Made by a program: the position numbers and the translations under genes. DNA of 64,000 nt from Escherichia phage Mizar. Shown piece after piece: positions 23,137-25,615 of the stretch. The stretch lies in the sequence record PV714129.1. One strand, given 5' to 3'. The notes below the pieces were generated by a model, which was not told the DNA's origin, did no database searches, and worked only from the letters and a program-made list of their open reading frames with translations. Numbering within the stretch: the first letter of the stretch is position 1; each line of letters opens with the position of its first letter.

Positions 23137-23403
23137 TTACTTATCGCACTTAGCAACATAATTAGGCATATCACAGAATACGGAGCGTGTAACTACTCGA
23201 CCCTTTGACCATGCTTCAGTTGCTTGTCCGGCTGTGCTATTAATATAGATTGATTTAATGTTCTCAATACCCTGAGAATGTGATGCATTTACCGAACCAT
23301 TGGAAGGCCCAGAAGACTGGTCACCACCAGCTCCTGTACCTGTGGTAGCACCAACAGAGAATGCCATCATTACTGCGAATAAACCAATTACTAATTTTTT
23401 CAT
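23137..23403 (-). CDS. Small secreted protein (signal peptide, 2 Cys)
   Basis: MKKLVIGLFAVMMAFSVGATTG signal-like N-terminus; Gly/Ser-rich linker; C-terminal Cys pair. Confidence 0.5.
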   Translation of the reverse strand: MKKLVIGLFAVMMAFSVGATTGTGAGGDQSSGPSNGSVNASHSQGIENIKSIYINSTAGQATEAWSKGRVVTRSVFCDMPNYVAKCDK

Positions 23404-23434
23404 ATTTACCTCAAGTTAAGGGTTATTTATCTAC

Positions 23435-24424
23435 TTATTTATAGTAAGAATTATGATTTTCGAGATAGACTTGCTCAAGGAAATCATCCCAGAAACTCAT
23501 ATCTACTTTTTGTTGCATACCATTCTTGGCAGCTTGTTCTGACGCATGTTCAACTTGGTCAACGATATCTTCTAGGAATTCTTGTACAGTTTTAAACCTA
23601 TGTTTACCAAGCTTAACATCGAGAATAAATGGAGCATCCTGAAGTGGGTAAACCAAGTCACCGGTTTTATAAATTTCCAATAGTTGAAGTCCACCACGAC
23701 ATGCATGACTCAATGCTTTCCAGTCAATACCTTCGTTAGCTTCTGCCTTACGAGCACGTTCACCATAGTTCTCTTCCAGTTTAACCAGGATGGCATTGAA
23801 CTCTTTATTGGTTAACGTGTCTTGGAATTTACGGTCCAACAGATTATAGAATGTTTGCTTACCTGTTTTCTCGTTTTCAGTTTCAACCCACGAAGCAAAT
23901 TCACCCACAGGCAGAACATTCTTCATATGTGATAAACGAATTACTGCACCATTATCAAAGTATTGTCCCCATTCATTAGAACGTTTAAGGGCTTGACGAA
24001 GAACAGCCAGTCGAGAACCCTTGACACCGTATTTAGAAGCTTGCTTACGGACATACCCTAAATAAGATTTCATGTTAGTGGTATAGAAACGAGACCTGTT
24101 ATCTTGAATATACTTCCATACATCAGGCAAATCAGATTTAACTACTAGACTTGGTGGAGTGTGAAGCATATCTAATGCGACGGTTTCACCATCTGCAGCT
24201 AGTTTAAAGAAATATTTGAGACTATATAACTCATGGTCAACATCGTCTTTTGTGTTCTTAGAAGATGTGTTATTCGTGTTCTTGCTCATATGTTCTTTAA
24301 CGTTACCGGTCAAGATATCACGAGCATGAGGGACATAAATTTCTTTAAAATCGACGTCAGATTCAGGAGTAGACGTTCCATAAAGGTGGCTACCAAAGTA
24401 GCCTTTCATAATTGTTTTCATCAT
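23435..24424 (-). CDS. Pol-beta-superfamily nucleotidyltransferase-like protein
   Basis: N-terminal GSHLYGTSTPESDVDF fits the minimal NTase motif hG[GS]x9-13DhD; 329 aa. Confidence 0.55.
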   Translation of the reverse strand: MMKTIMKGYFGSHLYGTSTPESDVDFKEIYVPHARDILTGNVKEHMSKNTNNTSSKNTKDDVDHELYSLKYFFKLAADGETVALDMLHTPPSLVVKSDLPDVWKYIQDNRSRFYTTNMKSYLGYVRKQASKYGVKGSRLAVLRQALKRSNEWGQYFDNGAVIRLSHMKNVLPVGEFASWVETENEKTGKQTFYNLLDRKFQDTLTNKEFNAILVKLEENYGERARKAEANEGIDWKALSHACRGGLQLLEIYKTGDLVYPLQDAPFILDVKLGKHRFKTVQEFLEDIVDQVEHASEQAAKNGMQQKVDMSFWDDFLEQVYLENHNSYYK

Positions 24425-24894
24425 TTAGCCTTATATTCAAGAGTAGGACAGACTTTTTCTTTACGAGCTTTAAGGTATTCACCTATTAATGATTTCTTAC
24501 GTTCAATAGGCTCAAGTCCATTTTTAATTCGTTCTTGGTTTTGCGCAATGAGCTCAATTTCTTTATAATATTTTCTGTCGTTATATTTGTCTAACAACCA
24601 AGACGGACCAATTACTAACCCGGTAGCAATAAAAGCCATGACTGCTACAATTAAAATGCCTACACCAATTGAGGCTGGAACTAATGTCCATAGACTGCTA
24701 AAAACAAAGAATTTAGTTAAAATTTCATGACCAAAGATTGTGACTGCTGCTAAAATCGCAAATCCAATAATTGAAACAGCCAATGCCGGGATTAACGTTT
24801 TCCAAAAATAAGCACACAACGTTTTCGGACGATTCCATGTACTATTGAACGCGGCATAAATTTTAAAGTGCCAAGAGTTTTCATTGATAATCAT
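24421..24894 (-). CDS. Membrane protein (two predicted TM helices)
   Basis: Hydrophobic helices LIPALAVSIIGFAILAAVTIF and IGVGILIVAVMAFIATGLVIG; stop overlaps the NTase ATG. Confidence 0.5.
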   Translation of the reverse strand: MIINENSWHFKIYAAFNSTWNRPKTLCAYFWKTLIPALAVSIIGFAILAAVTIFGHEILTKFFVFSSLWTLVPASIGVGILIVAVMAFIATGLVIGPSWLLDKYNDRKYYKEIELIAQNQERIKNGLEPIERKKSLIGEYLKARKEKVCPTLEYKAK

Positions 24895-24903
24895 AATAAT
24901 TCC

Positions 24904-25434
24904 TTATTTCAAAGTTGGGATAATAGAATCGAGATAAGCTTTAAGAGCAACTGCTTCATCTTTGTCTAATGTAACGATATGTTGACGAAGGTCATCAATT
25001 TGACGAATAACTACAACATCGCCATCTTCATAAGAAGGATTAACGCCTAGGACTGTTGTATAGTCAGGGCGGTCCTGATTTGTAATAAAAGCATTACGGC
25101 ATTTAGCCCATTGAAGTTTGGCCTTTTTGGCTATTTCAGATTCCATTAATTCTTTCACCTTAGTGACGAATGTTTTCCAATTATTGATAGAAATGCATTC
25201 ATCTTCTGTTTCGATATTAACCCCACTATAAAGACCGTGATAAAAACGAACTTGAAGGTCTTCATCGATGTTAATTACAGATGCATGGCCTGGCGGATTG
25301 AGTTTCAAAATCTTGTCCAGTTCCATAGGAAGAATAGTAACAGAATCATCTTCTTGTGTCAGAACGTAAGCATAACCACGTTTTTCGATACATAAATCAC
25401 CAAACAACTCGGTTGTTTCAATTACAATTTTCAT
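24904..25434 (-). CDS. Hypothetical protein
   Basis: 176 aa from ATG at 25434 with GGTGA SD. Confidence 0.5.
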   Translation of the reverse strand: MKIVIETTELFGDLCIEKRGYAYVLTQEDDSVTILPMELDKILKLNPPGHASVINIDEDLQVRFYHGLYSGVNIETEDECISINNWKTFVTKVKELMESEIAKKAKLQWAKCRNAFITNQDRPDYTTVLGVNPSYEDGDVVVIRQIDDLRQHIVTLDKDEAVALKAYLDSIIPTLK

Positions 25435-25435
25435 A

Positions 25436-25615
25436 TTATTCACCAATTAAAGTTTCAACAAAATTCACCAAAGCATTCTGGCACGCATCAACCTGATTTT
25501 CATAAAAGTCTCCGTTATCATTTACCGCGTGATAAGCTACATCATTCAAATCTGAATCGGCTTCACGTAGGTCACGGATAAGGTCCATCAATTTATTAGC
25601 TTGTTCACGGGTCAT
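25436..25615 (-). CDS. Small acidic protein (59 aa)
   Basis: MTREQANKLMDLIRDLREADSDLNDVAYHAV...; below the ORF-track cutoff. Confidence 0.35.
   Translation of the reverse strand: MTREQANKLMDLIRDLREADSDLNDVAYHAVNDNGDFYENQVDACQNALVNFVETLIGE

Follow-up and report, generated by a model that had tools for sequence, protein, structure and literature searches.

RlaP proteins (Pfam PF10127, 'RNA repair pathway DNA polymerase beta family') are nucleotidyltransferases (NTases) of RNA repair, and their chemistry was published only recently. Two Pseudomonas enzymes, PfRlaP and PaRlaP, put one or two nucleoside monophosphates (NMPs) on RNA 3'-OH ends (Carruthers, Fatma and Huang, bioRxiv Dec 2025; PMC12776372). 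They favour Mn2+ and nicked-tRNA mimics, are inactive on DNA and protein, and partly restore aminoacylation of tRNA that lacks one anticodon-loop nucleotide; RlaP has been proposed as an antidote to nucleotide-excising ribotoxins such as RloC (PMC12776372). The PfRlaP crystal structure has an N-terminal NTase domain and a C-terminal helical domain whose last helix packs back on the NTase domain (PMC12776372). Iyer et al. made the RNA-repair prediction for phage RlaPs too and found that, in jumbo phages, RlaPs and RNA ligases are distributed alike (PMC7824862). NrdC.11 of phage T4 falls in RlaP cluster 5, separate from the two characterised bacterial enzymes (PMC12776372). Here we describe an early gene block of Escherichia phage Mizar (PV714129.1), analysed within a window of 64,000 nucleotides (the whole stretch of DNA considered), in which an ortholog of NrdC.11 is preceded by the gene of a small membrane protein of the family phrog_944. 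The new element is the recurrence of this membrane protein beside RNA-repair enzymes, which is apparently undescribed.

The 329-aa NTase (328 aa in many databases, which place its start one codon later) is 78% identical to T4 NrdC.11 over its full length. It matches the Pfam RlaP model at residues 7-140 (48.3 bits, where the cut-off is 23; E = 1.4e-12) and belongs to phrog_388, 'nucleotidyltransferase' (1e-125); PF10127 is present in all 120 homologs among the matches listed, all of which are at least 98% identical. A search of 1.84 billion cluster representatives returned 3173 homologs, and 93 of 35-52% identity from this search were aligned. Residues G11, S12, S22, D23, D25, Y132, K236, R243 and G273 are invariant in this alignment, and conservation of D61, D63 and D85 reaches at least 90%. 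Because its residues are invariant across the 93 homologs, the GS...DVDF signature (G11-S12...D23-V-D25-F) represents a conserved Pol-beta active site. In the structure model, with a predicted local distance difference test (pLDDT) score of 94, an alpha/beta N-domain gives way to helices that run to residue 328. The best structural matches of the model are NTase-plus-helical-domain proteins, and aminoglycoside and lincosamide NTases and the MNT antitoxin are among the matches; PfRlaP was compared by description only. The protein is a member of the RlaP family, with its active site and an NTase fold.

The original prediction, which was made from the sequence before any search, had called this protein a Pol-beta-type NTase, and the profile and structure searches agree, with the GS...DxD motif lying within an NTase fold. 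It had also suggested that the protein could be part of something undescribed; for the NTase this does not hold because RefSeq annotates it as a nucleotidyltransferase and T4 NrdC.11 has been named as an RlaP (PMC12776372). The name 'thioredoxin', given to NrdC.11 orthologs in many GenBank and UniRef entries, is probably wrong and derived from the gene name nrdC.11. The protein shares PF10127 and the GS...DxD...D signature with T4 NrdC.11, PfRlaP and PaRlaP, and its model suggests an arrangement of N-terminal NTase and C-terminal helical domains like that described for PfRlaP. It differs from the Pfam model in length (~330 aa versus 249 positions, with a match to the N-terminal half only) and from bacterial RlaPs in setting, since the phage gene lies in a T-even early region and not in an rtcB or ligase operon. 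By analogy with the bacterial enzymes, we infer that phage NrdC.11 shares their chemistry and acts in tRNA repair. The proposed pathway is the one by which Pnkp and Rnl1 of T4 counter PrrC; in it RlaP is predicted to restore, ahead of ligation, the nucleotide that RloC-type enzymes excise. Unlike the presumed role of NrdC.11, those of Pnkp and Rnl1 are experimentally proven, and their genes (pseT and rnlA) lie elsewhere in the genome.

The gene immediately upstream encodes a 157-aa protein of phrog_944 (E = 5.7e-52); no Pfam model matches this protein or its relatives. Long hydrophobic stretches at residues 29-60 and 62-102 and an AlphaFold model (pLDDT 82.9) with a two-helix hairpin (helices 26-63 and 72-124) agree with the two-helix membrane protein that had been expected from the sequence. 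Three alignments of the family (n = 12, 42 and 49 sequences) have an N-terminal motif, MxIxKNSWH...LCxYFW, and a C-terminal motif, YLKARKxKVCPxIEY. C27, Y29 and C149 do not vary in any of the three; W8 is invariant in the 12- and 42-sequence alignments and at least 90% conserved in the third, and H9 is at least 90% conserved throughout. The possibility that family similarity is an artefact of hydrophobic composition was ruled out: the conserved positions lie in the soluble termini, and the transmembrane (TM) region is poorly conserved. In the model, an N-terminal strand (residues 2-4) pairs with a C-terminal strand (153-155), which would bring the conserved terminal motifs and both cysteines together in a Cys/His/Lys-rich mini-domain that is predicted from the positive-inside rule to face the cytoplasm. 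Foldseek comparison of the model with the PDB found nothing similar (best E = 3.1), and HalA was not among the matches.

Relatives of the membrane protein were found by tblastn in 1232 phage genomes. They include ORF096c of Tequatrovirus RB14 and RB32 (48% identical), proteins of T4-like phages of Klebsiella, Acinetobacter, Erwinia and Cronobacter and, unexpectedly, orf22 of Pseudomonas Pakpunavirus and gp169 of Vibrio phage ICP1. Among 185,579 bacterial and archaeal genomes there are only two weak matches, both in metagenome-assembled genomes and both without repair context. The family is essentially phage-restricted. Between Mosigvirus and Tequatrovirus the membrane protein is 50% identical, compared with 79% for RlaP and 78% for NrdC.10 (loci L003, L005, L009 and L010); the variable part is the TM hairpin and the terminal motifs are invariant.

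The survey of membrane-gene neighbourhoods covered 50 loci of IMG/VR, seven phages from GenBank and eleven contigs from metagenomes. In Mosigvirus, Tequatrovirus and metagenomic T-evens the gene overlaps RlaP or lies directly against it; in Jiaodavirus, Acinetobacter phages and other T4-like loci it is found 0.3-1.2 kb upstream of RlaP, with one to three small open reading frames (ORFs) between them. The order MobD.1-membrane-RlaP is kept down to 40% identity. The coupling of membrane gene and NTase gene noticed in Mizar therefore persists across T-even genera. Elsewhere, different repair enzymes take the place beside the membrane gene. In Pakpunavirus the membrane gene overlaps the start of an Rnl1-type ligase gene, with an AAA_33 P-loop kinase next, and a Metallophos phosphoesterase gene and a gene annotated as metal-dependent (HD) phosphohydrolase lie upstream. 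In Cronobacter phage S13 and a related contig, one small ORF separates it from a downstream Rnl2. A group of phages of ~160-170 kb (L037, L047) has a gene for an OB-fold (PHA02142) plus RNA_ligase protein 86 nt downstream and Rnl1 3.5 kb further on. A 210-kb contig has, after the membrane gene and 10 nt, a HAD_PNKP phosphatase, an AAA_33 kinase, one ORF and Rnl1, and in a 166-kb marine contig the membrane gene starts 8 nt past a gene for HAD_SAK_2, a 'Swiss-army-knife' RNA-repair HAD. In one context a cREC gene lies 112 nt past the membrane gene and is followed by NAD-salvage genes; the cREC domain has been linked to RNA ligases and to clearing of 2',3'-cyclic phosphates (PMC7824862). Small RNA_ligase-domain genes lie 1.1 kb and 1.8 kb from the membrane gene in two further contexts. 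At least six families of RNA end-healing or end-sealing enzymes thus stand beside phrog_944 genes in unrelated phages.

Other neighbourhoods have a different character. Some contexts that lack repair genes carry genes of nucleotide metabolism or replication. The genes after gp169 of ICP1 (L007, 3923-4345) encode a dNMP-kinase-like P-loop protein (gp170), an uncharacterised product (gp171) and a MazG-like pyrophosphohydrolase (gp172), with no recognisable RNA-repair gene among them. In Pakpunavirus, ICP1 and others the membrane gene is present and RlaP was not found in the flanking DNA examined. A 343-aa neighbour in L027, labelled 'DNA polymerase' in PHROG, was considered as a candidate RlaP and rejected when an RlaP profile revealed no relationship.

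After collapsing lineages, repair genes are immediate neighbours in 7 of ~27 contexts. Under uniform placement, for which adjacency of 5-8% would be expected, the binomial probability of this count is P = 3e-4 to 4e-3. The linkage between the membrane gene and RNA-repair genes is suggestive, not established, as judged from gene order. Weightier than the P value is the nature of the partners, which come from several enzyme families serving a single pathway and in most cases show translational coupling. Through the membrane-protein family, the Mizar NTase also appears to have an indirect link to RNA ligases. A membrane component of phage RNA repair is not mentioned in the searchable literature, which did not extend to the survey of Burroughs and Aravind from 2016. 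That survey reportedly proposes membrane-associated SPFH/Band-7 modules as RNA-repair scaffolds. Such modules, non-enzymatic, anchored in the membrane and associated in genomes with RNA ligases, NTases and end-healing enzymes, would offer a precedent for the function. The 157-aa protein differs from them in having an unrelated fold and family and in being essentially phage-only, and its scaffold role is a conjecture.

The block opens with an early promoter of T4 type, GTTTACA-N17-TATAGT with an extended -10 TG, which is the top sigma-70-like site of the region (score 10/12). The pattern GTTTAC-N16-18-TATART occurs at eight sites in the window, where 0.18 are expected, and all eight are on the minus strand. 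The promoter cassette that had been noted ahead of the block is therefore real, and the reading of the block as an early transcription unit is upheld. A palindrome with a 13-bp stem lies over the -10 box (folding free energy -20.6 kcal/mol, z = -5.3). Its 24-nt core, TAGGACTATGTTATAGTAGTCCTA, has four copies in the window, where none is expected, each inside a T4-type early promoter. Promoter-early stem-loop (PeSL) cassettes of T4-type phages are mobile regulatory units known to mediate shuffling (PMC2839356, PMC4122927). In Mizar the repeated promoter and stem-loop units look, by sequence, like such mobile cassettes: a near-identical early promoter and stem-loop are repeated between genes in a hyperplastic region. 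They differ in that the stem-loop lies over the -10 box itself, whereas in PeSL it lies upstream of the promoter. RB69-type phages are not among the PeSL carriers described in the text consulted.

On balance we lean towards reading the block as an early unit under a PeSL-type promoter in which NrdC.11 is an RNA-repair counter-defence enzyme and the 2-TM protein is its RNA-repair partner. The promoter would drive a polycistronic mRNA early after infection. A host anticodon nuclease would cut and trim tRNA, as in RloC-type damage, and the two-metal Pol-beta site of NrdC.11 would, as the biochemistry of the family suggests, extend the 3'-OH ends of the tRNA halves by a nucleotide. Pnkp and Rnl1 or Rnl2, encoded elsewhere in the genome, would then heal and seal the ends. 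NrdC.11 would thus be a counter-defence enzyme and not a signal generator. The 2-TM protein would be made in stoichiometric coupling with the NTase, and its cytoplasmic mini-domain is hypothesized, with less than even confidence, to serve as a scaffold or cofactor by which repair enzymes are tethered to the inner membrane or regulated there. With similar confidence, the phrog_944 protein may be seen from its gene neighbourhoods as an unrecognised, phage-specific, membrane-anchored cofactor that would recruit RlaP, RNA ligases and end-healing enzymes or control them, so that tRNA repair would take place at the inner membrane. Such a membrane partner is not obligatory because T4 lost the membrane gene to a homing endonuclease.

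Several observations weigh against this interpretation. About 18 of 27 contexts of the membrane gene have no recognisable repair gene (ICP1, L019/23, L024, L027, L029, L030 and others). Expected adjacency may reach 15% because accessory genes cluster in hyperplastic regions, and at 15% the same binomial test gives P = 0.1, which is not significant. T4 keeps NrdC.11 without the membrane gene. RlaP biochemistry is confined to the two Pseudomonas enzymes, neither of them from a phage, and in the Mizar protein the Pfam match is limited to the N-terminal NTase half. Sequence searches of PDB chains with the single NTase sequence and with the 93-sequence profile gave nothing significant, and no PfRlaP chain was found in the PDB copy searched. 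No Rnl1, Rnl2 or Pnkp gene was found in the 64-kb window; in T4 these genes lie 50-80 kb from nrdC.11. The RNA-ligase neighbourhood from which RlaP takes its name, which holds for many but not all members, is absent here. Finally, T4 nrdC.11-mobD.3 can be deleted in the laboratory (PMC9825161), so NrdC.11 function is conditional at best. Such dispensability is expected of a conditional counter-defence gene.

The strongest competitor is that the NTase is an RlaP repair enzyme that acts alone, with the membrane and secreted proteins being unrelated accessory genes (for superinfection exclusion, envelope functions or lysis timing, for example) that became its neighbours by cassette shuffling. We consider this less probable than the preferred reading of the block, but it must be taken seriously. 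It would explain why T4 has NrdC.11 with mobD in place of the membrane gene, why the membrane protein evolves faster than its neighbours (50% versus 79% identity) and why a repair gene was not seen in about two-thirds of membrane-family contexts. The position of the block inside the rI-nrdC hyperplastic region, bounded by PeSL-like cassettes, also fits, as do the restriction of the secreted protein to 102 genomes and the loss of significance at a null adjacency of 0.15. What it accounts for less readily is that the partners (RlaP, Rnl1, Rnl2, OB-fold ligase, PNKP-HAD, SAK-HAD and cREC) belong to one pathway and come from unrelated phage lineages, that most are immediate neighbours or translationally coupled, and that the MobD.1-membrane-RlaP order holds to 40% identity. 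A different substrate for the NTase is a much less likely explanation. RlaP membership would then not predict function, and the enzyme would act on DNA ends or, in the manner of KNTase/ANT or MNT-type NTases, on a small molecule or a protein, for example. Its structural neighbours among aminoglycoside and lincosamide NTases and MNT antitoxin are consistent with this, as are the separation of the phage proteins in their own cluster 5 from the characterised bacterial RlaPs, the half-length Pfam match and the fact that the T-even gene is not beside ligase genes. Bacterial RlaPs are, however, negative on protein and DNA (PMC12776372), RlaP distribution tracks RNA ligases in phages (PMC7824862), and the membrane partner in phages is itself linked to RNA-repair genes.

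The original prediction had raised the possibility of a nucleotide-signalling module, for which the models would be the Hailong (HalA/HalB) and CBASS systems: an oligonucleotide or other nucleotide signal made by the NTase would gate or regulate the membrane protein, for exclusion or as a decoy against host systems. The gene layout and the fold similarity to HalB are all that speak for such a pair, which we now regard as very improbable. The NTase scores as RlaP and is not recognisable as a signalling or defence NTase of the CBASS CD-NTase or Hailong type, and PADLOC defence models match no protein of the block. PDB sequence and profile searches and PADLOC detected no sequence relationship to HalA or HalB, and in Pfam, PADLOC and Foldseek PDB searches the membrane protein showed no kinship to HalA, SLATT or CBASS TM effectors; as modelled, it is a 157-aa 2-TM hairpin without structural match to the HalA channel. 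The products differ as well, since HalB makes poly- or oligo-dA primed on its own tyrosine and characterised RlaPs add just 1-2 NMP to RNA ends (PMC12776372). The membrane family is also coupled to ligases, kinases and phosphatases, which are unable to make nucleotide signals, and co-occurrence is not obligate: the NTase occurs without the membrane gene in T4-type phages, and the membrane gene without the NTase in the examined flanks of Pakpunavirus and ICP1. The signalling claim is therefore not upheld. The related suggestion of an anti-defence role survives in the broad sense of repairing RNA damage inflicted by host nucleases and not otherwise.

Coordinates of the block and of related features are collected in Table 1. 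The 4.3 kb around the block have 98% DNA identity to phages LH01 and ATK47 and to O157 typing phages (Mosigvirus). The source phage is an RB69-like T-even phage of the genus Mosigvirus and the block is the known nrdC.11/mobD region, with the order mobD.2 - DUF7438 - mobD.1 - (membrane gene) - nrdC.11 - (secreted-protein gene) in the hyperplastic nrdC-rI region. T4 synteny runs nrdC.10 / nrdC.11 / mobD / mobD.1 / mobD.2, with nrdC.10 downstream of the hairpin that closes the Mizar block; in the window, rI, tk and vs are upstream of the block and nrdC.3, nrdC and nrdD are downstream. The block, first thought unplaceable among T4 genes, can thus be placed as mobD.2 / mobD.1 / (mobD slot) / nrdC.11, upstream of nrdC.10. 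Two of its genes have no T4 counterpart: the membrane gene, whose T4 slot holds mobD, a free-standing HNH homing endonuclease, and the 88-aa gene, which lies in the nrdC.11-nrdC.10 gap. The six tightly packed minus-strand ORFs that had been described are all present. ATGA-type overlaps occur at two junctions, between the orf36 stop and the orf59 ATG and, as had been noticed, between the membrane-gene stop and the NTase ATG (AAATGATGA). The ORFs, promoter and hairpin assigned to the block are real, but the span of 23137-25615 that had been given for it is slightly too narrow to take in the promoter, orf36 and the hairpin. RefSeq entry NC_055708 of ATK47 lacks annotation of the 88-aa gene and orf36, although both are conserved with ribosome-binding sites.

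Table 1. Features of the nrdC.11 block of phage Mizar and related elements (positions in the 64-kb window).
Feature	Position	Strand	Basis
T4-type early promoter, GTTTACA-N17-TATAGT with extended -10 TG	25751-25780	-	Motif score and enrichment
Palindrome with 13-bp stem over the -10 box	25740-25771	-	RNA fold
TAGGACTATGTTATAGTAGTCCTA, exact copies	25744-25767, 35822-35845, 45297-45320	-	
TAGGACTATGTTATAGTAGTCCTA, copy with 2 mismatches	37392-37415	-	
orf36, MobD.2 homolog	25612-25722	-	tblastn to T4 mobD.2
59-aa acidic protein, DUF7438 (Tk.1-like)	25436-25615	-	Pfam
176-aa MobD.1 / y05I-like protein	24904-25434	-	Pfam and T4 identity
157-aa two-helix inner-membrane protein, phrog_944	24421-24894	-	PHROG, hydropathy, AlphaFold model
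329-aa NrdC.11 ortholog, RlaP-family (PF10127) Pol-beta nucleotidyltransferase, predicted RNA 3'-end NMP transferase	23435-24424	-	
88-aa protein with Sec signal peptide, phrog_2243	23137-23403	-	PHROG and sequence
UUCG-tetraloop hairpin GGGGACC-UUCG-GGUCCC(C), 3' end of unit	23115-23132	-	Folding free energy -12.9 kcal/mol
318-aa DUF7277 and DUF7275 protein with GS...DxD motif	36139-37095	-	Pfam

The small upstream genes and the gene of the 88-aa, presumably periplasmic protein are regarded as probable lineage-specific passengers on the same transcript. Orf36 has a GGAG ribosome-binding site 8 nt upstream and is 65% identical to T4 MobD.2 (34 aa; tblastn, E = 3e-13); a Pfam scan found no match. 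The 59-aa protein matches Pfam DUF7438 (E = 2.2e-15) and phrog_4859, whose label 'helicase loader' looks unfounded. A DUF7438 paralog lies ~0.5 kb away at 25994-26176 on the minus strand, and each paralog is shortly downstream of an early promoter, that of the block and one at 26201-26229; related Tequatrovirus contigs (L003) have four tandem DUF7438 copies. The 176-aa protein is 44% identical to T4 MobD.1 and matches T4_y05I_N (3.9e-40) and T4_y05I_C (1.3e-19), which Pfam labels a putative transcription factor. The 88-aa protein (phrog_2243, E = 1.5e-38) bears out the expectation of a secreted Cys protein: it has a typical, clear Sec signal peptide, MKKLVIGLFAVMMAFSVGA, followed by TT, and just two cysteines, both near the C-terminus. 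It occurs in 102 phage records, mostly Mosigvirus, compared with 1567 for the NTase, and tblastn comparison with the T4 region found no counterpart.

The UUCG hairpin expected at the end of the block is present but modest. Only three U follow the stem, its energy is unexceptional for its composition (z = -1.1), and a terminator-like match at 23105-23121 overlaps it. Just past it, ahead of nrdC.10, is a MotA-box-like ATGCTTTTA at 23057-23079 (minus strand) with TACTAT/TATAGA 8-11 nt after it; the spacing is imperfect, and the site may, by its sequence features, be a middle promoter. NrdC.10 itself (22048-23028, minus strand) is a 326-aa P-loop protein (AAA_22/AAA_16/STAND-like) with a weak C-terminal helix-turn-helix match. 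It follows RlaP in almost every T4-like locus examined (including L003, L005, L009, L010 and many IMG/VR loci), and its conservation between Mosigvirus and Tequatrovirus is on a par with that of RlaP. Their conserved pairing suggests that RlaP and NrdC.10 may be functionally linked.

The window contains another protein with a GS...DxD motif, the 318-aa DUF7277 and DUF7275 protein, whose relatives occur in 734 phage genomes and which was not found in the T4 region examined. G6, S7, D25 and D27 do not vary in five homologs that share 27-53% identity, and the name nucleotidyltransferase is used for the protein in a few records of GenBank. The RlaP profile, a PDB profile search and Pfam scans of each member (which found only DUF7275 and DUF7277) gave no NTase link. 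In roseophage DSS3_VP1 a gene annotated as RNA ligase 2 has a homolog of this protein (L073, 1486-2391) 1.2 kb downstream. It is plausible from the motif that the 318-aa protein is an NTase, and it may be a second RNA-end-modifying one.

The NTase by itself adds little to what is known because it is the ortholog of an annotated T4 gene and the chemistry of its family was published in 2025. T-even phages do, however, provide a genetic system for the proposed role of RlaP as an 'antidote to nucleotide-excising anticodon nucleases'. The membrane protein, which is small, fast-evolving and phage-restricted, is the more valuable lead. If its linkage to repair genes is functional, phage RNA repair would have an unstudied membrane-associated component, and this would matter for the question of how, and in what place, phage repair enzymes and host anticodon nucleases meet.

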